Shown: piece by piece, positions 15,603 through 36,946 of the stretch | Layout of the letters: the number at the start of each line of letters is the position of its first letter | How positions within the stretch are numbered: the stretch's first letter is position 1 | Assembly (NCBI GenBank): GCA_965116155.1 | Contig: OZ220488.1 | Location: 1,496,318-1,560,317 of the forward strand | DNA length: 64,000 nucleotides | Direction: 5' to 3' | DNA from: Bdellovibrionales bacterium | Lineage (GTDB): Bacteria; Bdellovibrionota; Bdellovibrionia; Bdellovibrionales; UBA1609 | Notes under the pieces: model-generated | Databases searched by the model: none | The model's input: only the letters and a program-made list of their open reading frames with translations | What the model was told of the DNA's origin: nothing | Position numbers and translations under genes: made by a program

Positions 15603-15756
15603 TCGGCGTTAAAAAACTGCTTTTCGTTTAGCGTGGGAGGCACCGCCTTTGCGGTGTGTCCATAGACTGCCAAATGTGACGGCGCTCTAATAAAGCTTGT
15701 GCTGCTAACACTCTAATTGCGCCCTATTCATCTTAACCAAGCACATCCGGCTGCAG

Positions 15757-15820
15757 GCGCCTTTGACGGGAGTGTGGTCGCCTTGGGTCTATCGAACACC
15801 CAAGGCTACAGGCTCATAGA
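15757..15820. repeat. module C in reverse orientation
   Basis: gcgcctttgacgggagtgtggtcgccttgggtctatcgaacacccaaggctacaggctcatag is the reverse complement of the ctatgagcctgtagccttgg...cgtcaaagg consensus. A module-A-like ctaacactctaattgcg lies at ~15705. Confidence 0.8.
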
Positions 15821-15852
15821 TGCCGTATAGCCCAGAAAATTTTATTAGGCCT

Positions 15853-16746: not shown

Positions 16747-16864
16747 ATATTAGATTTATTAACACCACACCCTGCATACGCCCAATTAAATCACTGTTGC
16801 GACCTATACAGCTTACTCAATACGCTTGCACCCTCAACCCATACAAGGCACATTGCAATGCAAC

Positions 16865-19754: not shown

Positions 19755-19872
19755 GCCTGTAGCCTTGGACGATTTTTAGGTCCAAGGTGACCACGCTTGC
19801 GTCAAGGCCTCGTGCCTTTAAAGTGATACTGGACGCTTTGGGGCTAGAGGGCCCCCAAAGCTGCTGGCGCTT
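19748..19872. repeat. module C plus family-D right flank
   Basis: ctatgagcctgtagccttggacgatttttaggtccaaggtgaccacg...cgtcaagg, then gctggcgcttttatccttgcg (compare gctggcgcttttatgcttacgc at 37087 and 48998). Confidence 0.8.
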
Positions 19873-21597
19873 TTATCCTTGCGGGCCAAGCTCTTTCAAC
19901 TCCAGCTCAATATCTTGTAGCTTGGTTTTTGCTTCTTCAATCTGGTGGGTGATTGTTTTTATTTCTTCTAGAGGCGTGCTACTCATAAGCTCATTAAAGT
20001 CAATCTTCGCACTGTGCGCATAGTGAGGATAAGGAGCATCTTTATATTCAGTAGTTAAAAACAACCACTGGTTTTGCCCAAAGTGTATTACCTTCTTTGG
20101 CCATTGCACAGCGCTAAGCGTGGAGGACAAGGGCGCCCCGCCCTTAATATCATAAATGTAAAAACCGGCAGCGCCTCTATTAATCTCATCGATCTTATGA
20201 GTAAAATCATCAGAGTAAAAAGGGGGACGCTCAGCTGTAACAATATAGGAGCCTGATGCATCTACTGCAGCATCCACAAATATGTTTCCGCTATTTAAAG
20301 CACTAGGCTCAATTTTCAAAGTGGTTTTAGAAACAGCTCTATTTGGTGTTTTATAGGAAGTAGAAAACTTAAACACGCTCAAAATGTTTTGACCCTTGTT
20401 TAAAGACACTCCATAAATATTGCCGCTGTTATCAACCGATACAAGCCTGTCGAATTTGTTTTTAAAGCCTTTGATATAATGAGCTTGTCTAGATTTAAGA
20501 TCAACAACAAAGGCCGATTTTGATTTTGGGTATATAGAAATTAGCTTTCTGCCCGTAAAAAAAGACCTAGGGGCCTCTTGGGTATCATCTAGGATTTTGT
20601 TAAACATTTCGGATATTGCATTTGTTGTTGTTTTTTTTGAGTAAATTCTAAAATGATTTATATCAAGCGCAGTACGGGTTTTCATAGAAAGGGGCAGCAA
20701 CGTAACCTTTGCAGCATCAAAATCTACAATAACAAACCTGTTTTTATCTAAGTCATCCGCCACCAAGATCTTTGCATCTGCTATATGTGCCATATGTGAA
20801 ATAGACGCACTCTTTGCATTATTTATAGTGAGCGCTCTAGTAGATATATGGCCCTCTGTTTTTGCACAAAATGCTACAATGTCTCCATTATTATCTATAA
20901 CAGTATGCCAATTGCGATAGCGCATCGACTCTTTCACCTCGGTAGAAGATCCACTAAAAAAATTTTTTCCATTAGGGTGCAATAGTGTCTCTTTGTCCCA
21001 TAATGCAATGGAGTCCTTTTTATAATCCATTGCCACGCGAGGCGCGTCTGCCCATTCCCATGGGCCATCAAATTTTGCTTCTACAAAACTAAATCGCTTG
21101 CCAAGTTGTGTTTTGTGGCTTTCATAGGTTTCTATATTTTTAATCAGCGCCTCGCGCTCGTGCTTAAGTTCTGCTAAGGTTTTTTGCTTTTTGTTTTCAG
21201 TCACCTCAAGATTTGCAGCCACTTTTGACACCAAAGCTTCTACTTCAATAAGCGCCGCTTTATGCTGATCTTTAGATAGTTGCTCTTGAAGCTGCTTGTC
21301 TAACACATCATAAGCCGCCCTTAAGCCTATGTCCTCAGCCTTGCGCTGAGATTGCTTGCCTTTATGTAAAAGCTTGTTCTTACTAAGCTCCATTTTGATT
21401 GCAGCCATGCGTTTAATAATTTTGTCGTAAGGTTTTTGATCCAGCAACTTCTCACATGTTGCTGCGCCTTTAGCTGGCGCATGGTTAATTGCAGCATCAT
21501 CCTTAGCGAAGGCTGACGCGCTAACACATAAGGCCAAGCATAATAAGGCCAAGCATTTTAGTGCTTTTATAAAAATGGGACTGTGTTTTTCTGTCAC
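19873..21597 (-). CDS. family-1 paralog a: secreted coiled-coil protein with a non-helical C-terminal body (fold unassigned)
   Basis: The maximal ORF runs to 21708. A GTG at 21597 (GGAG 11 nt upstream) gives MTEKHSPIFIKALKCLALLCLALCVSASAFAKDD and 574 aa, the same length as paralog b. Both ATGs used by paralog c are mutated here. Confidence 0.65.
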   Translation of the reverse strand: MTEKHSPIFIKALKCLALLCLALCVSASAFAKDDAAINHAPAKGAATCEKLLDQKPYDKIIKRMAAIKMELSKNKLLHKGKQSQRKAEDIGLRAAYDVLDKQLQEQLSKDQHKAALIEVEALVSKVAANLEVTENKKQKTLAELKHEREALIKNIETYESHKTQLGKRFSFVEAKFDGPWEWADAPRVAMDYKKDSIALWDKETLLHPNGKNFFSGSSTEVKESMRYRNWHTVIDNNGDIVAFCAKTEGHISTRALTINNAKSASISHMAHIADAKILVADDLDKNRFVIVDFDAAKVTLLPLSMKTRTALDINHFRIYSKKTTTNAISEMFNKILDDTQEAPRSFFTGRKLISIYPKSKSAFVVDLKSRQAHYIKGFKNKFDRLVSVDNSGNIYGVSLNKGQNILSVFKFSTSYKTPNRAVSKTTLKIEPSALNSGNIFVDAAVDASGSYIVTAERPPFYSDDFTHKIDEINRGAAGFYIYDIKGGAPLSSTLSAVQWPKKVIHFGQNQWLFLTTEYKDAPYPHYAHSAKIDFNELMSSTPLEEIKTITHQIEEAKTKLQDIELELKELGPQG

Positions 21598-21787
21598 CTT
21601 TGACTTGGCTCCTATCGCGGGCCTCTGGCTGGGTACTGGGCTCACTTGTACTTTGCGGAGACCTTTTGGGTCAATACGTGTTGCACTGTGCCTTGTCTCG
21701 ATGGCCACGGCCTCGTTATAAAATGGGGGGAGCTCGAAGGGGGCTAGTGCTGCGCGATAAACCGACTGACTTTTAGGGTAATGCCAA

Positions 21788-22867
21788 ATGTTCTATGAAT
21801 GGCTTTATGCGTTTTCAGACAGCCTGCCGAGCCTTAACGTTTTTAAGTACATTACGGTTAGGGCGTTTTTGAGTTTTTTTATGAGCTTTGGGGTGTTTTA
21901 CTTTTTGGCGCCTTTTTTTATAGCAAAGCTCAAACAAAACAAACTGCGCCAAAAAATCCGAGACGACTGGGCCCAAGAGTCCGCCCCCTCTAAAAAACAA
22001 GCCGTCACCATGGGGGGGGTGCTTATTATCCTTAGCAGCCTGGTAGCGGCTTTGTTTTGGGTGGATATTACCAACCCTTTGGTGCTGTGCAGCATTGGCG
22101 TGTGTATAAGTTTTGGCTTGGTCGGTTTTTGGGACGACCGCCTTAAGGTACTGAGCCAGAGCACCCGAGGGCTTAGCATGCGAGCGCGGCTGCTAATAGA
22201 GTTTGGGATTGGCATTTGTGCCTTAGGGGCGCTTTATTACGCTGGGGCTTTGCCAACTGGCATTAGCCTGCCTTTTTTTAAGCACAGCCACATACCCCTT
22301 GGGGGTTTTTATATTTTGTGGGGAGCTTTTGTTATTGTGGCCAGCGCCAATGCGGTTAATATGACCGATGGTTTGGATGGGTTGGCCGTGGTGCCGGTTA
22401 TGGTGTGTATTAGCACCTTGATGGTTTTTGCTTACGTAGCTGGACACTTTAACATAGCCCAGTACCTGTACATACCTTTTGTGGCAGGCGCGGGGGAGCT
22501 TGTACCCTTGGGTGCTGGAGTGGTGGCGGCTTGCATGGGCTTTTTGTGGTTTAACGCTTACCCTGCTACTGTGTTTATGGGCGATGTGGGGAGCTTGAGC
22601 TTGGGGTCTTTTATAGGTATTAGCGCCCTTTTGAGCCGGCAGGAGCTCTTGCTAGTGGTTTTGGGTGGGGTCTTTGTGGTAGAAGCAGGGTCGTCGCTGG
22701 TGCAGATTTTGCATTTTAAACTCACACGGCAGCGCATTTTACCTGTGGCTCCTTTGCACCATTATTTTGAAATGCAAGGGGTGAGTGAGAACAAAATTGT
22801 GGTACGCTTTTGGATTATTTCTGTACTGTTAGCCGTTTTGAGTCTCAGTGCCCTAAAGTTGCGCTAA
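21788..22867 (+). CDS. mraY: phospho-N-acetylmuramoyl-pentapeptide transferase
   Basis: 359 aa polytopic protein. NAVNMTDGLDGLA and FMGDVGSLSLG motifs. Confidence 0.92.
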   Translation: MFYEWLYAFSDSLPSLNVFKYITVRAFLSFFMSFGVFYFLAPFFIAKLKQNKLRQKIRDDWAQESAPSKKQAVTMGGVLIILSSLVAALFWVDITNPLVLCSIGVCISFGLVGFWDDRLKVLSQSTRGLSMRARLLIEFGIGICALGALYYAGALPTGISLPFFKHSHIPLGGFYILWGAFVIVASANAVNMTDGLDGLAVVPVMVCISTLMVFAYVAGHFNIAQYLYIPFVAGAGELVPLGAGVVAACMGFLWFNAYPATVFMGDVGSLSLGSFIGISALLSRQELLLVVLGGVFVVEAGSSLVQILHFKLTRQRILPVAPLHHYFEMQGVSENKIVVRFWIISVLLAVLSLSALKLR

Positions 22868-22908
22868 ACTCCAAAACAGTTAGAAGGCAATAAATAAAAG
22901 GCAAAAAA

Positions 22909-24294
22909 ATGGAAGCATCTGAACTAAAAAACAAACGCATACTCATTGTGGGCCTTGGTCAGACAGGGCTAAGCTTAGCCCACTGGCTTGTAAGGCAAAA
23001 GGCCAAGGTGACTGTGAGTGATCACAAGTCTAAGGCGGAGCTAAGCGAGTCTTTAGAGAAGCTGAACCCTATTATGAAAGAGGTCAACTTGGCCTTGGGG
23101 GGGCACAGCCCGAAAGTGTTTTTAGACCAAGACCTTGTGATTTTAAGCCCTGGGGTATCGCCTCATTTGCGCATTTTTGATTATATCAGCAGCCATGGAG
23201 TGCAAGTAACAGGCGAGCTAGAATTTGCTGCACAATTTGTAAAAGAGCCCATGGTGGCTATTACGGGCACTAACGGAAAAACCACCACCGCATATTTAAC
23301 GGCCCATATGCTAAAGCGTAGCAACAAAAAGGTTTGGCTCGGTGGCAATTATGGGTCACCCTTGTGCAATTACTTGTTACACAGAGAAAAAGCCGACGTG
23401 GCTGTGGTAGAGATGTCTAGCTTTCAGTTAGAAAATGTCCAAAAGCTAGCTCCACAAACGGTGGTGTTTACTAATTTGTCACAGGGGCACCAAGACCGGC
23501 ACCGCAGTATGGAGGACTATATTGCAGCCAAGCGCAAAATTTTTCTTAACACCAGCGCCAATACCACCAGCATACTCAATGCTGACGACGATGCTGTGGT
23601 AGAGCTCGCCCGTGATCCCAAGGTGCAAAAGGGGAAGATTTTTTATTTTTCATGCAAGCCTGCCTTGGAGCCTCAGATTATGAACATTGGGGGGTGCGTA
23701 AAAATTGGCTCTCAGGTGCGTGTGCGCACGGGGCCCGAGATTGAATACTTTGATGTTGAGCATATGCGGGCCAAGGGCTCTTATATGGCAGAGAACCTTA
23801 TGGCTGCAACCTTAGCCGCTAGAGAGTTTGGCGCCACCCACGAAGCCATTGACCATGTGATTAATAATTTTTCTGGCCTCACGCACCGTTTGGAGTATGT
23901 GCGTAAAGTGGGAGGGGTGGAGTTTTACAATGACTCTAAGTCTACTAATCCCAAGGCGGTCGAAAGGGCTTTGGAGTCTTTTGGCGAGAACGTAATTTTA
24001 ATTATGGGCGGTAAAGACTCGCAAATGGACTACTCCTTGTTGCAGAAACAAATTTTACAAAAAGTAAAAACCCTATTCCTGGTAGGCGAGGCCAAAGAGC
24101 GGATCAATCGTGACATAGGCGATTGCTCTGAGACGTTTTTAATTGGCACCTTTGACGAAGCCGTGTTTACCGCGTTTAAAAAAAGCCGCATAGGTGACAC
24201 CGTGCTGCTAAGCCCAGGGTGCTCGTCGTATGATCTTTTTGCCAGCTACATAGAGCGGGGGAACTATTTTAAAAAACTCGTGCGAGATTTTTAG
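22909..24294 (+). CDS. murD: UDP-N-acetylmuramoylalanine--D-glutamate ligase
   Basis: ILIVGLGQTGLSLA Rossmann start, ITGTNGKTTTAYL, NDSKSTNP, SPGCSSYDLF. Confidence 0.9.
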   Translation: MEASELKNKRILIVGLGQTGLSLAHWLVRQKAKVTVSDHKSKAELSESLEKLNPIMKEVNLALGGHSPKVFLDQDLVILSPGVSPHLRIFDYISSHGVQVTGELEFAAQFVKEPMVAITGTNGKTTTAYLTAHMLKRSNKKVWLGGNYGSPLCNYLLHREKADVAVVEMSSFQLENVQKLAPQTVVFTNLSQGHQDRHRSMEDYIAAKRKIFLNTSANTTSILNADDDAVVELARDPKVQKGKIFYFSCKPALEPQIMNIGGCVKIGSQVRVRTGPEIEYFDVEHMRAKGSYMAENLMAATLAAREFGATHEAIDHVINNFSGLTHRLEYVRKVGGVEFYNDSKSTNPKAVERALESFGENVILIMGGKDSQMDYSLLQKQILQKVKTLFLVGEAKERINRDIGDCSETFLIGTFDEAVFTAFKKSRIGDTVLLSPGCSSYDLFASYIERGNYFKKLVRDF

Positions 24295-25014: not shown

Positions 25015-26442
25015 ATGCCCCGATTTAAAAACCCTATCTGGCTAAAACAGCTTGCACCAAAAGGATCAAAAGCTAAAGCTGAGCTCAGCGAGGGCGGCCT
25101 GTATCGGCGTTTAAAGCCCTTGTTGGCGTCTTCTGACCCTAAGCCCTTGCAACAACTGCTAGAGAGCCTGACGGCGGCTCAGTTAGCACCCCTGGGGCTT
25201 GCGCTAAGCGCACAGGAGCTTAGGCTGCTATTTTTGCAACTATTAAAAACGCAAAAAGCCTCTCTCGTAATTGACAAAACCCCTGCGCGTTTTAGAGAGG
25301 AGCTTTTTGAAAAGCTCGACCTCGGGGTTTTAAAAAAGGTCATGCAAGAGGCCAGCGTGGAAGATATCGCCTCTTGGTACGACGAGGAAGCCACACTGCA
25401 TACCCAAGCGCCTCAGTGGTTTAAAAATCTTCCCCGCACACGCCAGGCCAAGGTGCGTTTGTTTTTAATGTACCCTGAGTCGAGTGTGGGTCGGCTTATT
25501 CAACCTGAGGTGTTTGCGCTGCCCACGGATATTAGTGTGCGGGAGGCCTTAAGGCTTTATCGCAAAGGTGCGCAAAGCCAGGAGGGGTTTTATTACATTT
25601 ACTGCGTGAACGAGCAAAAGCAGCTACAGGGAGTTTTGTCTTTAAAGGAGCTTGTTACAGCGCCTTATGAACAGAGCATTTTGCAGCAGATTACTAAAAA
25701 TCCCATTACGGTTAATGCTCTTGACAGTGTCGATACTGCGGCGCGCTTAATTGCAGATCACGACTTTATTGCCTTGCCTGTTGTGGATCAAAGGCAGGTG
25801 TTACTGGGTGTGATTAATGTGGATGACATTTTGGATGTCATTCAAGAGCAAGCCACACAGGATGTCTATGCGCAGGTGGGGCTAAAAAAAGACGACCGTG
25901 TTTTTTCTCCTATAAAAAGCAAAATCGCAACCCGTTTGCCTTGGATGTTTTTAAACCTAGGGCTGGCGGCTTTAGCCAGCAGTGTGGTGGGCTTGTTCGA
26001 GGGCACTATGCAGCAGCTCATTGTGCTAGCAACGTTAAAAAATATCGTAGCCGGCGTGAGTGGCAACACAGCAATACAGAGCCTTACGCTTATTACTAGG
26101 GGGATTTCTATGGGTGATTTTGCTTATATTAAGCGCTTTAAAGTGGTGCTTAACGAGCTGGCAGTGGGGGCTGTTTTAGGCGTAGTGTTGGGCCTTGGAG
26201 CCGCGGTGTTGATTTTTTTGTGGCAAAAAAGTTTGTTTGTGTCTACGGTTATTGGGCTGTCGATGTTTTGTAACTCTATTGTGGCGAGTTTATTTGGGTC
26301 TTTGGTGCCTTTGGGCTTAAGGCGCCTTAATTTCGACCCTGCTGTGGGGAGTGGAGTGCTCGTCACCACTGTGACGGATATATTTAGCTTTTTCTCTTTC
26401 TTAGGAATTGCAAATTTAGCTCTTAAAGCTCTAGCTGCGTAA
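25015..26442 (+). CDS. mgtE: magnesium transporter MgtE
   Basis: N-terminal helical domain, CBS pair (ALPVVDQRQVLLGVINVDDILDVI), then five C-terminal TM helices. First ATG at 25015; the ORF opens at TTG 24976. Confidence 0.85.
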   Translation: MPRFKNPIWLKQLAPKGSKAKAELSEGGLYRRLKPLLASSDPKPLQQLLESLTAAQLAPLGLALSAQELRLLFLQLLKTQKASLVIDKTPARFREELFEKLDLGVLKKVMQEASVEDIASWYDEEATLHTQAPQWFKNLPRTRQAKVRLFLMYPESSVGRLIQPEVFALPTDISVREALRLYRKGAQSQEGFYYIYCVNEQKQLQGVLSLKELVTAPYEQSILQQITKNPITVNALDSVDTAARLIADHDFIALPVVDQRQVLLGVINVDDILDVIQEQATQDVYAQVGLKKDDRVFSPIKSKIATRLPWMFLNLGLAALASSVVGLFEGTMQQLIVLATLKNIVAGVSGNTAIQSLTLITRGISMGDFAYIKRFKVVLNELAVGAVLGVVLGLGAAVLIFLWQKSLFVSTVIGLSMFCNSIVASLFGSLVPLGLRRLNFDPAVGSGVLVTTVTDIFSFFSFLGIANLALKALAA

Positions 26443-28147
26443 GCATTATATCTTGTAGCTGAGCTTTTGCCTCTTCAATATGGCGGGTGATTTTTTCTGT
26501 TTTTGCATCATCTATTGCATCATTCAATTTAAGTTTGGCACTGTATATATGAGAAGGCTTAGAGGTGTTGTGCGAAATAACAGGAAAAGGCTTATATCCG
26601 TGGTCTCCAACCGCTAGAAATAGCAACTGGTTCTGGCCATAGTTTATTATTCTATGCGGCCAGGGCTCCTCTTTATCTAAAATAGAGCTATTGGAGACCG
26701 CTTTCCCAGTTGCCATGCTATAAATGTAAAATCCAGCATCTTTGTTAGGCTGAGGACCTGCGGGCCGCTCAGCTGTAATAATAAGTGCACCCGATGAATC
26801 TACCGCTACATCCCAAAACAAGTTTTTTCTTTTAAAGCCACTGTCATCAATTTTTAAAGTTGTTTTAGAGACAGCCTTGGCAAGTGTTTCGGACTCTGGA
26901 GAAAATTTAAAAACCTCCAACACTTTTCTGTCGTCTTTAAAAGCAACCCCATAAATGTTCCCTTTGTTATCAACTGATATCAGCCTTTCTATTTCATCTA
27001 TGAATTGGTTGTCAATGTATTGAGAATCTCCCGATTTAATATCAACTACAAAGGCTGATTTGTCTTCTGGGTATATGGCAATTAACTTGTTGTTTACAAA
27101 AAAGGGCATCACCTCCGATGAGGAATACTCGGGGAGACTTGATAGCTCTTCGCTGAAATACTCCCCACTTGAGTAGGCTTTTTGGCCATTGGGATAAATA
27201 CTAAAACTATTTAGGTCAGTGTGCCATGTGTGGCCTGTTTCGTTATCTATGGTAGTGACTCGCGCCTGGGCAAAGTCTGCTATGATTAACTCTTTTCCAT
27301 CATCGGAATGCGCGGCCAATGACTTAGATTTCGATACTTTTTCTTTAGCAATTATCTTATCTTTATTATCAACGGTCCGCTTGATATTCTTAGTAAGAAG
27401 CACCAGGTCGCCGTCACTATCTACAAAAGCAAGGTGGTTAGAGCGAGCAATACCCCCCTTGGCCTTTCGTGTTTTAATTTTACCAAAGTAACTTTTGCCA
27501 TTAGGAAGAAACAGCACAGGATGGTATACGTCATAGTCACTCCACAACAAAACAGAGTTATTTTTAAAGTTTCTTATCAAACGAGTGCCTGCGCGTTTTG
27601 GCCACCATATTCCTTTGAACTCCATATTTAAATCAAAGTCTTCAATTTTTAAATCTTTGACCTGTTCCTCAATCCACTTGGCCCGTTTGTTTTTTGTTTT
27701 GCGCAAGTTTTTTTCATAGGTTTCTAGCTTTTTAATAAGCTCCTCGCGAAGCGCTATTAAATTTGCTGATTTTTTCTTTGCATCCGACTCAAGCTTTGCA
27801 GTCACTTTTGAAACCAAAGATTCTATTTCGATATGCGCCGCTTTATATTGCTCTTTAGGTAGTTGCCCTTGAAGCTGCTTATCTAAAATATCATAGGCAG
27901 CGCTTAAGCCTATGTCCTCAACCTTGCGCTGAGATTGCTTGCCTTTATGCACAAGCTCGTTCTTACTAAGCTGCAATTGGATCGCAGCCATGCGTTTAAT
28001 AGTTTTGCCGTAAGGTTGTTGGTTAAGCAGCTCCTCACATGCTGTCGCGCCTTTAGGTGCATGGTTAATTGCAGCACCCTCCTTAGCAAAGGCTGACGCG
28101 CTAACACATAAAGCCAAGCATGCGAGCACTTTTAAGCCTGTCTTCAT
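26423..28147 (-). CDS. family-1 paralog b: secreted coiled-coil protein with a non-helical C-terminal body (574 aa)
   Basis: MKTGLKVLACLALCVSASAFAKEG signal peptide. Shares N-terminal, internal (NIYGV, VFKFS, AVSKTTLKI, TAERP, GFYIY, GQNQLLFL) and C-terminal (HIEEAKAQLQDI) blocks with 19873..21597 and 29894..31669. The 3' end overlaps mgtE by 20 nt. Confidence 0.7.
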   Translation of the reverse strand: MKTGLKVLACLALCVSASAFAKEGAAINHAPKGATACEELLNQQPYGKTIKRMAAIQLQLSKNELVHKGKQSQRKVEDIGLSAAYDILDKQLQGQLPKEQYKAAHIEIESLVSKVTAKLESDAKKKSANLIALREELIKKLETYEKNLRKTKNKRAKWIEEQVKDLKIEDFDLNMEFKGIWWPKRAGTRLIRNFKNNSVLLWSDYDVYHPVLFLPNGKSYFGKIKTRKAKGGIARSNHLAFVDSDGDLVLLTKNIKRTVDNKDKIIAKEKVSKSKSLAAHSDDGKELIIADFAQARVTTIDNETGHTWHTDLNSFSIYPNGQKAYSSGEYFSEELSSLPEYSSSEVMPFFVNNKLIAIYPEDKSAFVVDIKSGDSQYIDNQFIDEIERLISVDNKGNIYGVAFKDDRKVLEVFKFSPESETLAKAVSKTTLKIDDSGFKRKNLFWDVAVDSSGALIITAERPAGPQPNKDAGFYIYSMATGKAVSNSSILDKEEPWPHRIINYGQNQLLFLAVGDHGYKPFPVISHNTSKPSHIYSAKLKLNDAIDDAKTEKITRHIEEAKAQLQDIMLTQLEL

Positions 28148-28192
28148 ATTTTTCTTAATTGCCAGAGGTTCATAGTGTGTTTGCCCGATGTA

Positions 28193-28346
28193 CGTGGCTT
28201 TGACGACGATCTGGTCGCCTTGGACTTAGAGATGCATTGGTGCCTCTAACGAAAGTGTGGCAAATAAGGTCACGTTTCATCCACTTGCCTCAAGCAAACC
28301 CTGACACAGGCGACACTATTTGCCTCAATTTAGGCTAGCACTCTAA
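28193..28346. repeat. repeat fragments: reverse module C and reverse module A
   Basis: cgtggctttgacgacgatctggtcgccttgg (28193-28223) and ctagcactctaa (28335-28346), ending 10 nt from the 5S 3' end. Confidence 0.7.
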
Positions 28347-28356
28347 ATTAATTTAC

Positions 28357-28476
28357 GTTGGTATCGTGCTACTCTCGACACAGGCGTGAGCCTGCACTAC
28401 CATCACCGCAGGTGAGCTTAACTGCTGAGTTCGGAATGGGTTCAGGTGTACCCTCACCGCTATAAACACCAACAGG
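28357..28476 (-). rRNA. rrf: 5S ribosomal RNA, not adjacent to a 23S gene
   Basis: - strand reads cctgttggtgtttatagcggtgagggtacacctgaacccattccgaactcagcagttaagctcacctgcggtgatggtagtgcaggctcacgcctgtgtcgagagtagcacgataccaacg. It has CCGAACTCAG, GATGGTAGT and GAGAGTAG blocks, and helix I ttggt/accaa. Ends are +/- 3 nt. Confidence 0.9.
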
Positions 28477-28480
28477 TAGT

Positions 28481-28510
28481 ATTTTTATGCGAGTATTTTT
28501 TATAAGTCAA
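28481..28510 (-). promoter_or_regulatory. sigma70-like promoter for the 5S gene
   Basis: - strand: TTGACT (28510-28505), 17-nt spacer, TAAAAAT (28487-28481). This places the start about 5-7 nt upstream of the mature 5S 5' end. Confidence 0.55.
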
Positions 28511-28556
28511 TATTATTCCATTATTGGTGTATGTTAGGGGTCCACTAGGGGAAGTT

Positions 28557-29882
28557 ATGCGTATGTGCAGCAACAAAACAGCTTTTTTGTCCATAGGGAT
28601 ATGGGTAGCGCCTTTGTGCGTCTGTGCTTTTATGGGGTCCCTTATGGGGCTGAGGGTGGCCCAAGCCGCAGAACCAGCATCAAACCCAGTGGAGCCCGTG
28701 GCGGCCAATTGCTTTAAAATTTTACAAAGCGCCTATGCTCAAGGCACTCAAGAGTCTTTGGGCGAGGCTTTGGGCAGGGTAAATGACAAATATCTCAGCG
28801 AGCAAGATTTGGCCCAGTGGAGGGCTTTAAGCGCCAAAAGGTATAAAGATTTCAGAGCCCATGCTTTGCACAATTTGCGCGACAAAGAAAAAAAACAACA
28901 CCTCCTCATTTTAACTAAAGAGCACCTGGAAAAAACTTTAGCTAGCATTAAAAACAGCAAATCTGAAGCCCTGGGCCGTTTAGAGCAGTTGGACACTGAG
29001 TATGGCACTGAGCACTTGAACCGCTTTCAGCGAGAAGAAGCCAGCGTGCAAGAAGAGCTAATGAAGCTAAAGGACCAGATGCGTAAGAAGAGCTTTCTGC
29101 TGCGTCCTTTTTGGCGCGCAAAAACTTGGCCTACAAAACGAGCTCTAAGAAGCCGGCTGCATAAAATCCATGTTAGCGTTTTCTCAAAAGGAGAGTCTAC
29201 TTCCAGTGCTACGTGGAGTGCTTTTGTCAAAATTGGTTCAGAGGTAGAGCAGTGGAAAAAGCTCTCCCAAGACTCCGAACTGTATGAACAGGTGCTTAAA
29301 ACACAATTGGCATTTTTAGAAGATCAGATCAGAGAGATAGAAATGATTTTGCAGCATAAGCGGCTCTACCAAGAGGGCTTTGAGCAAGAGGAGCTGCAAG
29401 ACGGCCAAGATCACACAGAAACAGAAGGCAATATATATGATTATATGTTTTTGGCAGACAAAGAATACGCCGCCGGAGAGCAGGTGGTTTTAATGCTATT
29501 ACAGTATTCTAGCTTTCAAGAAAGTTCTGGCGAAGATGGCCGGCGACTTTTGGATGATTTGTTTTTGGAGGCTGCTTTGCGCGGCGAAAATCTGGATGAC
29601 TTAAAAGATAACATAAATGCTCTTAGACAAAAGTGGATGCGCGCTGACATTCGCAGCAACACGATCAACCAAGAACGCGTAAGAGCTTTAGAGAAGCAGG
29701 TTTTAGATCTAATAGCATCTAGAGATCAAGTGCAAGCCCAGCACGAGCAGGCTGAGAAAGACTTTGCAAAGCGTTTGCACAAACTCAAAAAAAACCGATT
29801 TAGAAAAAGCTTTCTCTTAGGCACAACGGCCTTTGTGGTATTCGAAATCGGGTATCATACCTTTTTATGGTATTTCACATAG
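28557..29882 (+). CDS. secreted/membrane-anchored coiled-coil protein (441 aa)
   Basis: ATG 28557 preceded by aggggaag. N-terminal hydrophobic LSIGIWVAPLCVCAFMGSLMGLRVAQA, a long charged heptad-rich body, and a C-terminal TM (FLLGTTAFVVFEIGYHTFLWYF). No family recognised. Confidence 0.6.
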   Translation: MRMCSNKTAFLSIGIWVAPLCVCAFMGSLMGLRVAQAAEPASNPVEPVAANCFKILQSAYAQGTQESLGEALGRVNDKYLSEQDLAQWRALSAKRYKDFRAHALHNLRDKEKKQHLLILTKEHLEKTLASIKNSKSEALGRLEQLDTEYGTEHLNRFQREEASVQEELMKLKDQMRKKSFLLRPFWRAKTWPTKRALRSRLHKIHVSVFSKGESTSSATWSAFVKIGSEVEQWKKLSQDSELYEQVLKTQLAFLEDQIREIEMILQHKRLYQEGFEQEELQDGQDHTETEGNIYDYMFLADKEYAAGEQVVLMLLQYSSFQESSGEDGRRLLDDLFLEAALRGENLDDLKDNINALRQKWMRADIRSNTINQERVRALEKQVLDLIASRDQVQAQHEQAEKDFAKRLHKLKKNRFRKSFLLGTTAFVVFEIGYHTFLWYFT

Positions 29883-29893
29883 AGTATTTGCAT

Positions 29894-31669
29894 ATGCCCA
29901 TGTTTATAAAAGCACTAAAATGCTTGTTCGCATGCTTGGCTTTATGTGTTAGCGCGTCAGCCTTCGCTAAGGATGATGTTGCAATTAACCATGCACCAGC
30001 TAAAGGCGCAGCAAAATGTGAGGAGCTGCTTAACCAACAACCTTACGGCCAAAAACCTTACGGCAAAATTATTAAACGCATGGCTGCGATCAAAATGCAG
30101 CTTAGTAAGAATGCGCTTGTGCATAAGGGCAAGCAATCTCAGCGCAAGGCTGAGGACATAGGCTTAAGGGTGGCTTATGATATTTTAGATAAGCAGCTTC
30201 AAGGGCAACTACCTAAAGAGCAATATGAAGCAGCGCTTATTGAAATAGAATCTTTGGTTTCAAAAGTGACTACAAAGCTTGAGGTGGATGAAAACAAAAA
30301 GCAAAAAACCTTAGCAGCGCTTCAGCACGAGCGCGCGGCGCTGATTAAAAATATAGAAACCTATGAAAGCAAAAGAAGGGATCTACTTCAGGGAGCGTTG
30401 GGTGAAGCTGTAAAAATGAAAAAATGGGATTTAAAGGTAAAGTTCGACGGTGCATATTGGAGAGTTCGCAGTGGGGCCATTTTAATATGGGACTATAGTA
30501 ATAGTAGCAACTCTGTTGCCTTAATTGATAACAAGGCAAGATTTCTGGATACAGATTCACCGTCTAAAGAAATCCCACTGTACTATAAGGGGGGCAGTTA
30601 TTTTGGTAATACGTTTAAGTTTTCATCTAGCAGTGACGCAGAAATTGGGGACATGGTCAGTAGTTATTCAATGCATAGGGTTAAACAGGCCTTTTTAAAC
30701 ACGGAAGCAAACCTTGTAATTTTTGATAAGGGTTACGAATACACGATTAATAATACAGGTAAAGTGATTGATAAAAAAAGAGTGTCTCAAACAATGCCCT
30801 TAGTGGGTTTTTCGCAGAGCCAAATAATGGTAGCAGACTTCAATGGCTCAAAACTTACCACAAAAGACACCGGCACAGGCAATGAGGAAAGTGTTGATCT
30901 AACTCGTTTTAGTATTTATGACGGCAGCAAGGAAAGAGAGGCAAGCCCACTTGAGTTTGACAGGGTTTTAAAAAAGATGTCAAAAAATACGGTACCTTTA
31001 TCTGTTGTAACAGACAGCAAGTTGATTGCTCTATATGAAAAGGATGCCTTTATTGTTGATAGCATGTCTGGGCATGCAAGATTAATTAATTTCTTTGAGC
31101 CTGAAAGCGTCCAGTATCGTCATAGAAAACAGTTGGTATCCGTTGATAGAGACGGAAACATTTATGGGACTTTTATAAAAAAAGGCGAAAAAGTTTTGGA
31201 GGTTTTTAAGTTTTCCCCAGAGTCCCAAACGCCTAATACAGCTGTTTATAAAACCACTTTGAAAATTGAACTTAATGCTTTTAATAGCGAAAATATATTT
31301 GATGATACTACTACTGTGGACTCAACAGGTCGTTACGTTATTGCCCTTGAAAGGGGGCCAAGTGCACCAGGGGTTTATCTGTATAGTATGGAGCTGGGTA
31401 TCAAACTAGGTAATACTTCTATATTAGAAGGCCTAACAGACCCGAGTGACGAGGTGATAGATGTGGTCAACCATGGTCAGAACCAGCTGATGTTCGTACT
31501 TGCCTCTGAAGATAATGAAAGCGGGCGTACGGTTTTTTATGTGTCTAGCGCTAAGTTTAATTTTAATGACAATAAACTCGGCGAAGTGGATAAAATCATC
31601 CACCAGATTGAAGAGGCAAAAGCTCAGCTACAAGATGTTGAGTTGAAACTTGCGGAGACAAGCAAGTAA
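29894..31669 (+). CDS. family-1 paralog c: secreted coiled-coil protein with a non-helical C-terminal body (591 aa)
   Basis: MPMFIKALKCLFACLALCVSASAFAKDD signal peptide and the same conserved blocks as paralogs a and b. Contains a 15-nt internal duplication (QQPYGQKPYG). Confidence 0.7.
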   Translation: MPMFIKALKCLFACLALCVSASAFAKDDVAINHAPAKGAAKCEELLNQQPYGQKPYGKIIKRMAAIKMQLSKNALVHKGKQSQRKAEDIGLRVAYDILDKQLQGQLPKEQYEAALIEIESLVSKVTTKLEVDENKKQKTLAALQHERAALIKNIETYESKRRDLLQGALGEAVKMKKWDLKVKFDGAYWRVRSGAILIWDYSNSSNSVALIDNKARFLDTDSPSKEIPLYYKGGSYFGNTFKFSSSSDAEIGDMVSSYSMHRVKQAFLNTEANLVIFDKGYEYTINNTGKVIDKKRVSQTMPLVGFSQSQIMVADFNGSKLTTKDTGTGNEESVDLTRFSIYDGSKEREASPLEFDRVLKKMSKNTVPLSVVTDSKLIALYEKDAFIVDSMSGHARLINFFEPESVQYRHRKQLVSVDRDGNIYGTFIKKGEKVLEVFKFSPESQTPNTAVYKTTLKIELNAFNSENIFDDTTTVDSTGRYVIALERGPSAPGVYLYSMELGIKLGNTSILEGLTDPSDEVIDVVNHGQNQLMFVLASEDNESGRTVFYVSSAKFNFNDNKLGEVDKIIHQIEEAKAQLQDVELKLAETSK

Positions 31670-31689: not shown

Positions 31690-31987
31690 CTCTCTTTAAA
31701 AGCACGAGGCTTTGACGAGAGTGTCGCGGCCTTGGGCGTTGACGGGAGTGTGGTAAATCGAGTTTGCTCAGTTTGTCTTAGATTAAGCGCACTCGGACAC
31801 AGGCGTGGTTATTTGCCTAGGCCAACATTAGCCCCATTTCAGGTGCGCCGCTTTAACTCGATTTACAGGGCCATAAAAGCCTTATAGGTCGCAAAACAAA
31901 CTCGGGCCTTTCGTTTGTCCCAAGAATAGACGCGCCTGAGCTGCCCTTGGGACGGCACTTACTGGCCAAGTTTGTTTTACTAGCGCT
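31690..31987. repeat. mosaic repeat block (reverse module C, module F, module E, reverse module A)
   Basis: gcacgaggctttgacgagagtgtcgcggccttgg (31703-31737). gtgcgccgctttaactcgatttacagggccataaa (31843-31877) is also at 36947. ttataggtcgcaaaacaaactcgggcctttcgtttgtcccaag...cccttggga is also at 46985-47060. ctagcgctctaa lies at the right end. Confidence 0.8.
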
Positions 31988-32704: not shown

Positions 32705-32950
32705 TTGAAGTTAGAGCGTTAGTCCAATATCCTGGGATTAAGCGTCGGCGTCCTGATAGCCTCTGGAAGAGGCGGCCATCAGGGCGCCAAGCGTCCCGCA
32801 GAATATTGGGCGGCCTATAAGGGATCTATGGCCCTGCGGCTTTGGGCGATTTTTAGGCCCAAGGCCGCGACGCTTACGTCAAAGCCCCGTGCATTGAGTA
32901 AGCCTAAGTTAGAGCGTTAGTCCAATACTCTGGGATTAAGTGCTGGATGA
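32705..32950. repeat. A-B-C repeat unit plus truncated second unit
   Basis: gttagagcgttag, hairpin B with core ctgatagcctctggaagaggcggccatcag (32753-32782), module C ctatggccctgcggctttggg..cccaaggccgcgac..cgtcaaagc..gtgcattgagtaag, then a second gttagagcgttagtccaatactctgggattaag truncated before the 32968 start. Confidence 0.85.
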
Positions 32951-32967: not shown

Positions 32968-35094
32968 GTGGCGCAATTACGCAACATAATACTTGGCAAG
33001 GCCTTTGTGGCAGTGGTGGCAATTGGGGTTGTGGGCTGCAGCAGCGTGCCCCAGCGCGAGCCCCAACGCGTGCCCTTGTCGCAAGCCCAAGAGCAGCAAA
33101 ATGCGCAAATCCTTTTAGAGCGCCAATTTTTGCGTGAGCTGGGTACTAAAGTGCACTCTGTAGTAGAGGCGAACACTTTTTTACTAAGGCGCCTTTATGT
33201 TTGCGTAACCTATGCTCGCTACCATGCGCGCCCGTTGCCGGAGTTTGTAATGAGGGCAAGAGCCTTAGAGGTAGAAGATAATATGCGCCTTAGCGCGAGT
33301 GTGAGGAGCACTAATAGCTGGGGCTCTTTTGATAAAGACGATTTAAAACAGACCTGCCCGCAGTATTTTTATCAAGTACAGCAGATGTCTCAGCAAACCT
33401 ACCCTGCCATTAAAAAACTACTTGCTATGCATGGGGTTTTAAAAAAGCAAACCATGCAGCAGCTGTGGGGGCTGATGTTAAAAGAGCTACAGTACGCGCA
33501 TTTTAAAAAAACGGGCACTAAATTGAGTTATAGTTTAAAGCTTACAGCAGTAGAAACTCCAGCTGGCCCTACTGTTGGGCCTAGGCGCTGGGTGTATAAA
33601 AAAGCCAGCGCCCCAGCCAAGCTCCCTAAAAAGTGGGGCGTAGAGGGTGTGGATTTTTCGCCTCCCGTTAAGAGTAGCCATATAAACAATGTGTTTCATA
33701 ATATCGAAGGCTTAGAGTTTAGCGGGCTTGATATAGAGCGGTATGTGTTTGATAGTAACGCTAAAGAGCATGGCGCCATGCCGGGCAAGGTTGTGCCGGT
33801 GGGTTTTGGGCAAAACACACGCATGCTGCAGCCGCATCAAGCTGTTTATGCGCCTAAGGCTTTTAAAAATTATTGTGATGTATTTAATTTTAGCTTGCAC
33901 TGGGGTGAGGGCTCTAGGGCCCAGTGCCATGCGTACCATAAAACACTTTTAAAAGTAAGCCAGCATTTGGGCATTGCAGAGCACCAAGATCCAGATTACG
34001 CGCAAGCCGAAAGCGCATCTAAAGCGCGCTGCACGCAGGGTGAGGCGGTAGATAGTGTGCTGTTACAAAAAATCCAAAAGGCCGTGGATAAAAGCTGTGC
34101 CTTGTGGTCTGGGTTAAATTTTAACTACGATGTTAAAGCAAAAAAAAGAGTATTTAGTTTTGACTCAAAAAAATCGGCACAAAAATTATCAAAGCTCACT
34201 ACAAAAGAGTTAGAGCAGCTCTATTTGGTGGGGAGTGTGCTAAAGCAATTTTCTAACGAGTGGAGCTTTGATGAAATAAAAAAACACCAAAACCTTACTG
34301 GCCTCTGGGTTAAAGACACGCTAATTAACATGGTGGGGGCGGTGCCTTTTTTGGTTATGCTAAAAACCTTTGCCTTGCAGGATCTAGCGGATTGGCAAGA
34401 TGTATCGGATTTAAGAGGGCTGAGTGATAAAACCTGGCAAGATATGGAGCGTGTGTTTGCTTACAAGCTAAAGCGTGGGCATGCGTTGAGTGCACACACT
34501 CAGCAGCATATAAACGAGGCTCATTTGGATCTTATGCAGTTTGTACCCTTGGTTACAGACATGGTCCAAAATCCTCCACAAAGCTTTCTGGCGCAGGGCT
34601 TGAGTGCGGAGGGTGTTGAGCGTCTGGCTGCAGGTTTAACCAAGCGTTATGAGAGCCTGTGGCACCAGGGCAAAACTGTAGCGGTGCTTTTTATTGCGAC
34701 AATAGGTTTTTGTGCGGCTCCTTTTTCAAAAGCATTAAAGGCTTTCAAATTTGTTAAGGCCGCTGCCAAGGTGGAGAGTTTAAGGGCGTTGCCTGGCATA
34801 GGAGGGGCATTTTTTTCTTGTGGTTGGTCGTTTGATGTTGTGGCTAATGCGGGCTATTTTGTTTGGGCGGCTTATGATGGAGCCAAGGTAGTGGATGGGT
34901 TTTTATCTATGGGTAACAAGCTTGTGCGGTACGAAGATTTAGACCAAGTGCAAAAAGACGTCCTTTTTGAGATGGCATTTATGCCAGTGGGCATAGCTGG
35001 CACAACAAAGGCTGCGCGTGCGCTTCGTCAAAAGCTCCAAAAACAAAAACAAAAAGCCCACAAGGCCTTGCAAAAACTACGTGCGCCCAATTAG
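32968..35094 (+). CDS. family-2 paralog b: large lipoprotein with C-terminal transmembrane segments (708 aa)
   Basis: GTG start. AFVAVVAIGVVGCSS lipobox. Shares SQAQEQQNAQILLERQFLR, YPAIKK..VLKKQTMQQLW, HFKKTG.KL.Y, PFL.MLK...LQ.LA.WQD and WQDMERVF blocks with 12074..14311. Its stop codon lies inside module A. Confidence 0.7.
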   Translation: MAQLRNIILGKAFVAVVAIGVVGCSSVPQREPQRVPLSQAQEQQNAQILLERQFLRELGTKVHSVVEANTFLLRRLYVCVTYARYHARPLPEFVMRARALEVEDNMRLSASVRSTNSWGSFDKDDLKQTCPQYFYQVQQMSQQTYPAIKKLLAMHGVLKKQTMQQLWGLMLKELQYAHFKKTGTKLSYSLKLTAVETPAGPTVGPRRWVYKKASAPAKLPKKWGVEGVDFSPPVKSSHINNVFHNIEGLEFSGLDIERYVFDSNAKEHGAMPGKVVPVGFGQNTRMLQPHQAVYAPKAFKNYCDVFNFSLHWGEGSRAQCHAYHKTLLKVSQHLGIAEHQDPDYAQAESASKARCTQGEAVDSVLLQKIQKAVDKSCALWSGLNFNYDVKAKKRVFSFDSKKSAQKLSKLTTKELEQLYLVGSVLKQFSNEWSFDEIKKHQNLTGLWVKDTLINMVGAVPFLVMLKTFALQDLADWQDVSDLRGLSDKTWQDMERVFAYKLKRGHALSAHTQQHINEAHLDLMQFVPLVTDMVQNPPQSFLAQGLSAEGVERLAAGLTKRYESLWHQGKTVAVLFIATIGFCAAPFSKALKAFKFVKAAAKVESLRALPGIGGAFFSCGWSFDVVANAGYFVWAAYDGAKVVDGFLSMGNKLVRYEDLDQVQKDVLFEMAFMPVGIAGTTKAARALRQKLQKQKQKAHKALQKLRAPN

Positions 35095-35645
35095 AGTGTT
35101 AGCCCAATATTCTGGGATTAAGCGCTCGAGGCAAGAGCAGCACCCTGTAAGGGTGCGACCTATGAAGCTACTATGAGCCTGTAGCCTTGTGCGGTCTTTA
35201 GGCACAAGGTGACCAGATTGTCGCCAAAGCCTCGTGCGTTGAGTAAACACAAAGTTAAAGGACTAATAAAATTCTCTGGGATAAAGCGGCGGCACACTGA
35301 TAGCCCCAACGGGGCGGCCATCAGGGTGCCAAGCGTCCCGCAGAGAATTTTATGGGCTATACGGTATCTATGAGCCTGTAGCCTTGTGCGGTCTTTAGGC
35401 ACAAGGTGACCAGATTGTCGCCAAAGCCTCGTGCGTTGAGTAAACACAAAGTTAAAGGACTAATAAAATTCTCTGGGATAAAGCGGCGGCACACTGATAG
35501 CCCCAACGGGGCGGCCATCAGGGTGCCAAGCGTCCCGCAGAGAATTTTATGGGCTATACGGTATCTATGAGCCTGTAGCCTTGTGCGGTCTTTAGGCACA
35601 AGGTGACCAGATTGTCGCCAAAGCCTCGTGCGTTGAGTAAACCCT
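35092..35645. repeat. tandem array of the 197-bp A-B-C structured repeat (2.4 units)
   Basis: ctatgagcct recurs at 35171, 35368 and 35565, an exact 197-bp period. The units look identical by eye. Confidence 0.95.
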
Positions 35646-35695: not shown

Positions 35696-36946
35696 ATGAG
35701 AAAACTTTTAATCGCTTTTTTGGCTTTAGTTCTGTGCTCGTACGTTTGGGCTGAGGGGGTAGGGTATGAAGGGATTGGTAAAGGCACGCGCGATGACTAT
35801 TATTGGGGCAAGCCCCAAGCAGCTAGCGATCCAATAAACTTGCCGGATTCTGTTAAAAATATGCTGGATGAGGAGGTTTTGACAGGCGCTATGCTGCCTC
35901 TTTTTTGGGCCATTAAACACAAAGATTACGCTCTTGTAAAAACTTTGTTAAACCACAAAATAGACATCAATGCTCAAGATGCCCAGGGCCGCACGGCTCT
36001 TATGCAGGCGGTGCAAATGCCTAACTATGCAGATATTGAAACTTTGTTGGGCCATGTCGGCGTTGATATTAACCAAACAGACGACTATGGCAAAACGGCT
36101 CTTTTTTGGGCTGCGCAAAGGGGCCGGCTGCACTTTGTGAAAACTTTATTAAATAGTGGCATTGATGTTAACGCCAAAGACAAAGGTGGCGATACAGCGC
36201 TTATTTGGGCTGCGTATTACGGGCATGAAGAGTCTGTGCAAGCTCTTTTGTCTCATGAAGATATTGATGTTAACGCCAAGGACGATGCTGGCGATACAGC
36301 GCTTAGTTGGGCGGCGTATAACGGGCATGAAGAATCTGTGCAGGCCCTTTTGGCTCATGAAGATATTGATGTTAATGCCAAGGACAAAGATGGCAATACA
36401 GCGCTTATTTGGGCTGCGCGCAGAGGGGGTGAAGAATCTGTGCAAGCTCTTTTAGCTCATGAAGATATTGATGTTAATGCTAAGGGCGAATATGGCTATA
36501 CAGCTCTTATTGGGGCTGCGTATTACGGGCATGAAGAATCTGTGCAAGCTCTTTTAGCGCGTAAAGATATTGATGTTAATGCCAAGGACGATGCTGGCGA
36601 TACAGCGCTTATTAGGGCTGCGTATTACGGGTATGAAGAATCTGTGCAGGCGCTTTTAGCGCGTAAAGATACTGATGTTAACGCCAAGGACGATGCTGGC
36701 TATACAGCTCTTATTGGGGCTGCGTATTACGGGCATGAAGAATCTGTGCAAGCTCTTTTAGCCCATGAAGATATTGATATTAATGCCAAGGACAACGATG
36801 GCGAGACAGCTCTTGAGAGGGCGAAAAGCAAAGAAATTTCAGAGGCAATACACCTTGCCCTACAAGCCAGGGGCTTACAAGCTCATGCCGAATCATCGTG
36901 CGTAATCTTATTAAAGAGTATTAAAGAAATATGGTCTTCTCTCTGA
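35696..36946 (+). CDS. secreted ankyrin-repeat protein (416 aa, about 9 ANK repeats)
   Basis: Signal peptide MRKLLIAFLALVLCSYVWA, then repeated G.TAL..AA..GHEESVQALLAHEDIDVNAKD units. Confidence 0.85.
   Translation: MRKLLIAFLALVLCSYVWAEGVGYEGIGKGTRDDYYWGKPQAASDPINLPDSVKNMLDEEVLTGAMLPLFWAIKHKDYALVKTLLNHKIDINAQDAQGRTALMQAVQMPNYADIETLLGHVGVDINQTDDYGKTALFWAAQRGRLHFVKTLLNSGIDVNAKDKGGDTALIWAAYYGHEESVQALLSHEDIDVNAKDDAGDTALSWAAYNGHEESVQALLAHEDIDVNAKDKDGNTALIWAARRGGEESVQALLAHEDIDVNAKGEYGYTALIGAAYYGHEESVQALLARKDIDVNAKDDAGDTALIRAAYYGYEESVQALLARKDTDVNAKDDAGYTALIGAAYYGHEESVQALLAHEDIDINAKDNDGETALERAKSKEISEAIHLALQARGLQAHAESSCVILLKSIKEIWSSL
36188..36799 (+). repeat. intragenic 102-bp (34-aa) tandem repeat x6
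   Basis: aa 165-368 of the ankyrin protein are six consecutive 34-aa units. They differ mainly at a few positions (IW/SW/IG/IR, YY/YN/RR, SHE/AHE/ARK). Confidence 0.9.

Follow-up and report, generated by a model that had tools for sequence, protein, structure and literature searches.

The closest described relatives of the genes considered here are the beta-propeller-containing MoxR-vWA ternary systems, from which the Pfam family PF20030 (bpMoxR) was defined (Kaur, Burroughs, Iyer and Aravind 2020, PMC7159879). The propeller fusions of those systems involve the vWA protein and a third, TPR component, and the term "signal peptide" is absent from PMC7159879. Here we describe three paralogous genes, a, b and c, carried by a 64,000-nucleotide stretch of the genome of a Bdellovibrionales bacterium (GenBank assembly GCA_965116155.1, contig OZ220488.1, positions 1,496,318 to 1,560,317 of the forward strand; hereafter, the window). 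Comparison with a larger protein of the same genome, P0004, indicates that a, b and c are ATPase-less derivatives of predicted exported bpMoxR-coiled-coil-propeller fusions, and it is well supported that gene conversion homogenises the 5' ends of the three genes while their bodies diverge.

Two further gene families resemble this locus in the distribution of their conservation. The sap (S-layer) gene family of Campylobacter fetus, reportedly described together with its DNA inversion by Dworkin and Blaser in 1996-97, is said to consist of several paralogs with a conserved 5' region of a few hundred nucleotides and divergent bodies, and to have oppositely oriented copies around a short segment with transcription signals; a, b and c share these features. 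Ray et al. 2000, a further source on this family, is cited in PMC5634654. Unlike the sap products, the proteins encoded here, which are unrelated to them, are predicted to be exported by Sec and not by type I secretion; the bracketed segment holds a 5S rRNA gene, and both inversion and a unique promoter are hypothetical at this locus. The second family, the outer membrane protein paralogs babA and babB of Helicobacter pylori, undergoes concerted evolution in which conversion keeps the ends similar and the ligand-specifying middle diverges. The likeness to a, b and c lies in this division; the differences are that only the 5' end is clearly homogenised here, that the fold is another one, and that the copies lie within 12 kb of each other.

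Three intact paralogs with uneven conservation

The three genes are as follows.

Paralog a: 19873-21597, minus strand; ORF (open reading frame) call and alignments; database protein P0002; matched by P0004 in tblastn at E=5e-65. Its predicted parts are a signal peptide, a Cys motif (CEKLL), a helical stalk, a beta-propeller and a C-terminal helix.
Paralog b: 26423-28147, minus strand; 574 amino acids; ORF call, alignment and structure model.
Paralog c: 29894-31669, plus strand (database start at 29867); ORF call, alignment and BLASTP match to the metagenomic protein P0005.

A preliminary description of this DNA, made from the sequence alone, had claimed three secreted-type paralogs. All three ORFs are intact at the coordinates that it gave, and they are true, lineage-specific paralogs, for each of which a Sec signal peptide is predicted. 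Where translation of a begins is uncertain (a GTG at 21597, 21645 or 21708) because the ATGs used by c have been lost in a. Paralog c carries a 15-nucleotide (nt) tandem duplication that encodes QQPYGQKPYG (tandem repeat at 30034-30068).

Pairwise protein identity among a, b and c is 47-49% overall and is spread very unevenly along the length. It amounts to 67-81% from the signal-peptide core to the motif ETYE, 20-31% in the first half of the beta-rich region (blades 1-3 of the propeller described below), 46-51% in the second half (blades 4-7) and 43-46% in the C-terminal helix. Blades 4-7 and the C-terminal helix are probably under purifying selection. The invariant columns of the alignment (NIYG, VFKFS, AV.KTTLKI, ER, G.Y.Y, GQNQ..F and IEEAK..LQD) account for every one of the conserved blocks that had been listed from the sequence. 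The preliminary description had also reported a shared N-terminal helix of about 130 amino acids followed by a divergent, A+T-rich middle of about 300. The shared region was confirmed, and the structure model places about 120 amino acids of helix in it (residues 45-164 of b). The middle is shorter than claimed, with strong divergence only at alignment columns 161-400 (approximately 175-195 compared codons per pair), and its composition departs in the expected direction by a slight amount, with a GC fraction of 0.39-0.41 versus 0.43-0.44 in the 5' part.

Homology to bpMoxR fusion proteins downstream of the ATPase

Sequence searches of Pfam, NCBIfam and the PDB with a, b and c gave sub-threshold noise only, and a word-indexed search with a full-length profile recovered a, b and c alone. 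An exhaustive hmmsearch with a C-terminal profile was then run against 1.84 billion representative proteins. It returned four proteins only: a, b, c and P0004 (E=1.9e-81), all of which are encoded on one contig of 1,611,223 bp. P0004 is 984 amino acids long and is encoded elsewhere in the genome, outside the window. It matches PF20030 with 69.8 bits (cutoff, 27), as well as AAA_5 and, weakly, RavA, and its predicted order of parts is signal peptide, Cys motif (CQELL), MoxR AAA+ domain, stalk, coiled coil, propeller and C-terminal helix.

Stalk motifs are common to P0004 and the three paralogs (GKQS...DIGL..Y..LD), and the whole ATPase of P0004 faces one alignment gap in the paralogs, about 410 residues long and situated between "...CEELLNQQ" and "PYGKIIKRMAAIK" (in P0004, "IYNKIVKHMSEAK"). 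With P0004 as the query, tblastn matched the three genes at E=5e-65 to 2e-67 over P0004 residues 455-967, and homology to the post-ATPase part of PF20030 proteins extends over about 500 residues. Paralog c also matched residues 483-925 of the metagenomic fusion protein P0005 in BLASTP (E=1e-21), which makes the homology independent of paralogy within one genome. The MoxR-type AAA+ domain (PF20030) is absent from a, b and c, and no MoxR remnant was found in the window by tblastn. Because the whole ATPase is accounted for by one in-frame gap and the rest is homologous, a, b and c are best read as ATPase-less versions of the P0004 architecture. The earlier statement that they belong to no described family is thus correct in that no library model matches them and incomplete in that they are homologous to the post-ATPase part of PF20030 proteins (P0004 and P0005). 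Three orphan genes in this way become recognisable derivatives of a MoxR AAA+ system.

Searching with P0004 yielded 52 further proteins, mostly of 880-1020 amino acids and all with PF20030, one of which is annotated as coming from a Bdellovibrionales metagenome-assembled genome. Counting P0004, 49 of the 53 fusion proteins have a hydrophobic N terminus, and Walker A and B motifs are likewise intact in 49; the Cys column that follows the signal peptide is at least 90% conserved across this wider family. In both gene neighbourhoods that were read (L081; L082/L083), a vWA gene lies directly 3' of the fusion gene, with a gap of 4-29 nt. The downstream gene (L081, L082) has about 1200 codons. Its product has a predicted signal peptide, a similar Cys motif (EKCTSLF, NVCKLIF) and a long low-complexity stretch that is either acidic or of the (KPGES)n type, and its C-terminal vWA domain contains a DxSxS metal ion-dependent adhesion site (MIDAS) motif; a homolog of the protein carries PF13519 and PF05762. 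The two-gene unit occupies 10001-16414 of metagenome contig L081 and 10001-16319 of L082, and an apparently exported AAA+/vWA pair of this kind is unusual.

A Cys-x-x-[LI]-[LF] motif soon after the predicted cleavage site recurs in a, b, c, an ORF between b and c that we call cc, P0004-P0056, the vWA partners and an upstream neighbour, and might serve all of these in sorting or in disulfide formation. Its carriers besides a, b and c are the following.

Window, 28524-29882: the cc ORF.
Contig L081, 7513-8721 and 12818-16414.
Contig L082, 12684-16319.
Proteins P0004-P0056: the fusion proteins.

When set beside the published MoxR-vWA-beta-propeller systems, P0004 and its approximately 50 metagenomic relatives agree in carrying PF20030, and a, b and c are homologous to everything that follows the ATPase. 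A vWA (CoxE-type) gene directly follows the relatives' fusion genes, and a beta-propeller component is predicted for a, b and c (see below). They differ in that a, b and c are without the ATPase and the window is without a vWA gene. The fusion group also departs from the ternary systems in joining the propeller to the MoxR protein through a coiled coil, and signal peptides are predicted throughout, for the MoxR fusion and its vWA partner as well as for a, b and c. On account of this different fusion of the propeller and the absence of the term "signal peptide" from the published account, the fusion group constitutes a variant MoxR-vWA-propeller architecture, of which a, b and c represent one more, truncated form. 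For the third component of the ternary systems, which has a variable N terminus, a membrane segment and TPR plus propeller, the neighbours were covered by Pfam scans only; a TPR protein at 51821-53071 lies in a pilus/type II secretion system (T2SS)-like cluster and is probably unrelated.

Predicted export signal and propeller fold

The N termini of a, b and c contain K/R residues, a hydrophobic core of 12-14 residues and then an AFA|K site; the hydrophobic stretch ends in CLALCVSASAFA|K. A short Cys segment, C-E-x-L-L (CE[EK]LL), follows the predicted signal peptide.

A first AlphaFold2 (AF2) model, made with three sequences, was poor, with a predicted local distance difference test score (pLDDT) of 57. 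With an alignment of 49 sequences, paralog b was modelled at a pLDDT of 78.3 and a predicted TM-score (pTM) of 0.74. This model comprises the signal peptide (residues 1-21), helices at 45-62 and 76-95, a 67-residue helix at 98-164, an approximately seven-bladed propeller at 173-538 with about 26 strands in four-stranded blades, and a C-terminal helix at 547-573. Comparison with the PDB by Foldseek gave solely generic seven-bladed propellers of the WD40, YVTN, YncE and coronin types at 8-13% identity, with a probability of 1.00 and E values of about 1e-8; TM-scores were only 0.3-0.5 for the full-length model. No specific functional analogue was found among these structural matches. The fold class of the region around residues 173-538 is, at the level of the model, settled as a beta-propeller, and it resembles the seven-bladed WD40, YVTN and YncE propellers. 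Unlike those proteins, a, b and c have no Pfam propeller-repeat match in sequence: no WD40 or other propeller-repeat hidden Markov model (HMM) was found in them, and Pfam at E <= 1 gave noise only. The HMM and structure-prediction checks that the preliminary description had proposed thus led to the bpMoxR fusions and to a propeller model.

Evidence for gene conversion of the 5' module

The part of the three genes that is homogenised at the DNA level was delimited as follows.

5' module of b: 27712-28128, minus strand; left arm of an inverted repeat; from the local DNA alignment of b and c and a repeat search.
5' module of c: 29925-30368, plus strand; right arm of the inverted repeat; from local DNA alignment and site patterns.
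5' module of a: 21118-21579, minus strand; inverted relative to c and direct relative to b.

The module of b starts at the signal-peptide core and stops where the long helix does, at the motif ETYE. Identity is 90.6% between b and c over 416 aligned nt (27712-28128 versus 29925-30368), 90.4% between a and c over 459 nt and 86.5% between a and b over 408 nt, and perfect runs reach up to 51 nt in b-c, 43 nt in a-c and 28 nt in a-b. DNA homology starts within the signal-peptide codons, the regions upstream of the copies not being alike, and the homogenised tract ends exactly at the boundary between the long helix and the start of the propeller. The 3' helix shows weak signs of homogenisation at most (b-c, 92% over 48 nt).

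Synonymous (dS) and nonsynonymous (dN) divergence was computed by the Nei-Gojobori method, with alignment columns 17-160 taken as the conserved tract. dS was 0.16-0.30 in the tract versus 1.1-1.8 (saturated) elsewhere, a 6-10-fold reduction, and dN/dS was 0.54-0.70 in the tract versus 0.27-0.49 elsewhere, where saturation makes the ratio unreliable. Low dS together with higher dN/dS points to recent shared DNA ancestry. The tract contains 91 variable sites, of which 47 group a with c (ac|b), 35 group b with c (bc|a) and 9 group a with b (ab|c). These patterns occur in runs: 59 adjacent pairs of sites were of the same type, versus 37.6 +/- 4.4 expected by permutation (p=5e-5). The alternating runs indicate that the tract is a mosaic of several exchanges, in which c shares tracts with both a and b.

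P0004 serves as an outgroup. Its stalk is 32-35% identical to those of a, b and c, which are 67-81% identical among themselves. In the first half of the propeller the corresponding values are 23-32% and 20-31%, and in the second half they are 42-47% and 46-51%. P0004 is therefore equidistant in the propeller and distant in the stalk, which indicates that the bodies are old and about equally diverged and that the 5' modules are young. The suggestion of the preliminary description that conversion homogenises the ends while the middles diversify is borne out by the drop in dS, the mosaic of a-c and b-c tracts and the outgroup, and the dN/dS and recombination check that it had called for, run on a, b and c, yielded evidence for gene conversion. 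The genes offer a clean bacterial example of module-specific concerted evolution, in which the stalk is homogenised and the putative ligand-binding blades diverge.

Selection is another way in which the 5' ends might have been kept alike, acting on an export or oligomerisation module, on an overlapping gene in an alternate frame or on an mRNA element. The region does encode the signal peptide, the Cys that is at least 90% conserved and the stalk, and an alternate-frame ORF (MLARQPLLRR...) of 65-71 codons is kept in all three copies.

Alternate-frame ORF in b: 27910-28107, minus strand.
Counterpart in a: 21327-21527, minus strand.
Counterpart in c: 29946-30161, plus strand.

Selection on the protein, however, lowers dN and not dS and so predicts the opposite of what was observed; P0004 keeps the module at only 32-35% identity, and the nearest neighbour switches along the tract. 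The alternate-frame ORF covers about 200 of the approximately 430 conserved nt, less than half of the tract, and with values of 0.45-0.83 its pN/pS does not fall below that of the main frame. Dual coding was rejected on these two grounds, and we judge the ORF to be spurious, a by-product of DNA identity, as the preliminary description had proposed when it noted MLARQP.LR..LQLTM in all three genes. We give an explanation by selection hardly any credence and retain gene conversion.

Homogenised 5' ends in genes for exported proteins are not confined to a, b and c. Two lipoprotein paralogs of an unrelated family, at 11999-14311 and 32968-35094 (both on the plus strand; lipobox GV[MV]GC), show the same mosaic: identity is 35% overall, the first ~55 residues are nearly identical, and a 207-nt 5' DNA tract is 83% identical.

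The segment between b and c

Because b and c are divergently oriented, their 5' tracts form an inverted repeat, the arms of which are separated by about 1.8 kb. The repeat had been noted as enclosing a 5S rRNA gene and a coiled-coil ORF; it is real and slightly longer than was stated. The segment contains two genes.

5S rRNA gene: 28356-28473, minus strand; Rfam RF00001, 79.8 bits, full length.
cc ORF: 28524-29882, plus strand; 452 codons; directly upstream of c.

The 5S rRNA gene lies upstream of b in the same orientation, and a promoter scan detected a promoter-like site (TTGACT-18-AAAAAT at 28510-28481) that ends 7 nt before it. This 5S gene is solitary, with no 23S or 16S rRNA gene in the window, and the genome apparently has unlinked rRNA genes. 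The cc ORF encodes a predicted signal peptide, a Cys motif (ANCFKIL), a long charged helical region and a C-terminal hydrophobic anchor. No known family matched it in Pfam or NCBIfam, and comparison with the vWA partners and with neighbours of the metagenomic fusion genes detected no homology; the short Cys motif alone is held in common. Paralog c starts 12 nt past the cc stop codon, so cotranscription of cc and c is likely.

The inverted repeats thus flank a segment with expression signals that is composed of two divergent units, the 5S gene towards b and cc towards c. We propose that the b/c repeat arises from divergent orientation together with conversion; it could also support homologous inversion of the 1.8-kb 5S-cc segment (28129-29924). 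Recombination between the two arms would exchange the bodies of b and c, so that the one now behind the 5S side would come to stand behind cc, and vice versa. We treat such an inversion as a possible, hypothetical consequence of the repeat and not as a demonstrated function. The perfect runs equal or exceed the length commonly given for the minimal processing segment of RecA-type recombination.

A stronger form of this idea would make the segment a programmed inversion switch with sap-like geometry, in which the b and c bodies exchange upstream drivers and the exported propeller undergoes phase or antigenic variation. The divergent copies with 416 nt at 90.6% and a perfect 51-nt run would suit it, as would the promoter-like site and divergent units between them, the end of homology inside the signal-peptide codons, by which the upstream regions differ between the copies, and the divergent blades, which fit a variable exposed protein. 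Set against this, a single orientation is on record. Scans of genome collections with the family profile found no related or second copy of the locus, and metagenome scans with an exact 22-mer and with a four-sequence profile found no second copy either. There is no site-specific recombinase among the window ORFs scanned with Pfam, the divergence of 9-10% between the arms lowers the efficiency of homologous recombination, no observation indicates that either side is silent, and a 5S rRNA gene would be odd cargo for a switch. We consider a programmed switch improbable.

Proposed origin and role of a, b and c

We hold the following account, taken as a whole, to be probable, with moderate confidence: a, b and c would be exported stalk-propeller paralogs that arose from a parent of the P0004 type, lost the ATPase and had their 5' module converted. 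Each would be exported by Sec and consist of a cleavable signal peptide, the Cys segment, a helical stalk of about 120 amino acids, a propeller of about seven blades and a C-terminal helix. All three would derive from P0004, a larger exported protein of the same genome, in which the bpMoxR AAA+ ATPase of about 410 amino acids stands between the Cys motif and the stalk and from which the paralogs would differ by its clean, in-frame absence. The four propellers (a, b, c and P0004) would be about equally old, and the signal-peptide and stalk module would have been repeatedly overwritten by conversion among the three nearby copies, which would keep 408-459 nt at 87-91% identity and leave the remainder at synonymous saturation. 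The most likely function, which we infer, is that of exported propellers that bind ligands and share one kind of stalk, which probably oligomerises. Mounted on this stalk, the propellers would meet their targets outside the cytoplasm, be it in the periplasm, at the cell surface or within a host, and the paralogs would differ in ligand through their divergent blades. Roles as variable surface proteins or effectors are hypothetical. If they work inside prey or host cells, the three proteins would form a diversified effector or adhesin family in a host-associated-looking organism; if they are periplasmic housekeeping proteins, they would be an ordinary local gene family.

Several points weigh against this account. 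The N termini conform to a Sec signal-peptide pattern that is predicted from sequence features only, and a propeller fold carries no information on the ligand. The P0004 stalk is only about one-third identical to those of a, b and c, so that coassembly with the ATPase protein is not indicated. No vWA partner gene was found in the window by tblastn with two vWA queries, from L081 and L082, and a word-limited search for a partner in the source genome gave 3 matches, none of them on the 1.61-Mb contig. The unreliability of dN/dS in the saturated regions counts here as well. One recent replacement event in the 5' module, in place of ongoing exchange, might in principle suffice to explain the low dS; this is countered by the mosaic of tracts, which calls for at least several conversion events.

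Alternatively, a, b and c might be ATPase-less accessory subunits of a P0004 MoxR-vWA machine, coassembling with it as substrate adaptors or as dominant-negative regulators. Their ancestry and domain order are common with P0004, and the Cys motif after the signal peptide is common to P0004, its homologs, the vWA partners and the cc ORF; MoxR proteins act as oligomers with adaptor partners (PMC7159879). Against such a role, the stalks of a, b and c are homogenised together and not with that of P0004, the P0004 gene is elsewhere in the genome, and the vWA search described above gave no partner from the contig. We regard a role as accessory subunits as unlikely.

The larger oddity is a clade of MoxR ATPases and vWA partners with predicted signal peptides, since predicted export of these proteins is hard to reconcile with an ATP-dependent function in the periplasm; most of the interest of the locus lies in this wider puzzle of an apparently exported MoxR-vWA system. 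No pertinent work on exported MoxR proteins of Bdellovibrio turned up in a literature search. One speculative and rather doubtful solution is that the wider group constitutes an undescribed exported MoxR-vWA machine of Bdellovibrionota-like bacteria, all parts of which (AAA+ ATPase, coiled-coil stalk, propeller and vWA partner) would carry Sec signals and the Cys motif. This machine would act outside the cytoplasm (for example, in prey or host, where there is ATP) and, in the present genome, which is reduced and rich in ankyrin-repeat proteins, would have given rise to ATPase-less propeller "heads", with a stalk interchangeable by conversion and expression switchable by inversion of the 5S-cc segment.

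Genomic surroundings

Paralog a lies on the opposite strand between murF and mraY. It interrupts the dcw (division and cell wall) cluster murE-murF-mraY-murD (16826-24294), and murD is followed by greA (minus strand) and mgtE, not by ftsW/murG. MraY of the window reaches at most 46% identity with any GTDB species representative, and its best matches are scattered among several groups, including Omnitrophota, Planctomycetia and Pseudobdellovibrionaceae.

An intergenic element of about 100 nt that resembles repetitive extragenic palindromes or miniature inverted-repeat transposable elements (REP/MITE) has a stem CCTTGG...CCAAGG followed by CGTCAAAGCC. It is present in 8 copies in the window versus 0.09 expected.

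REP/MITE-like element core: 28196-28223, minus strand; between the 5S gene and the start of b.
All copies: 15759-15786, 19782-19809, 28196-28223, 31708-31735, 32859-32886, 35204-35231, 35401-35428 and 35598-35625.

One copy lies immediately 3' of a (19782-19809) and another immediately 3' of c (31708-31735), and the element borders both the paralogs and other orphan genes. Two intergenic tandem repeats were also seen: one at 35171-35642 (197 nt x 2.4 copies, 100% identity) contains the REP-like element, and one at 47069-47796 (239 nt x 3.0 copies, 99%) adjoins tRNA-Ile(GAT) at 47822-47898.

Other genes of the window suggest a host- or prey-associated diderm as the source organism, namely those for ankyrin-repeat proteins, a 5'-nucleotidase, a secretion cluster and Lnt, taken together with the 1.61-Mb genome.

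Three ankyrin-repeat proteins and the 5'-nucleotidase: 8832-10097, 10113-10790, 35696-36946 and 58573-59961.
Low-G+C stretches: 14001-16000, 20001-21000, 26001-28000 and 30001-31000.

Two of the ankyrin-repeat proteins are predicted lipoproteins with lipoboxes, and one has six repeat units of about 102 nt. The 5'-nucleotidase is of the eukaryote-type cytosolic kind (PF05761, E=4.5e-140), and the window also encodes a cluster of a secretin, a T2SS-E ATPase and PilM, as well as Lnt. The G+C fraction is lower in the orphan and paralog genes (0.38-0.42) than in the surrounding housekeeping genes (0.48-0.53).

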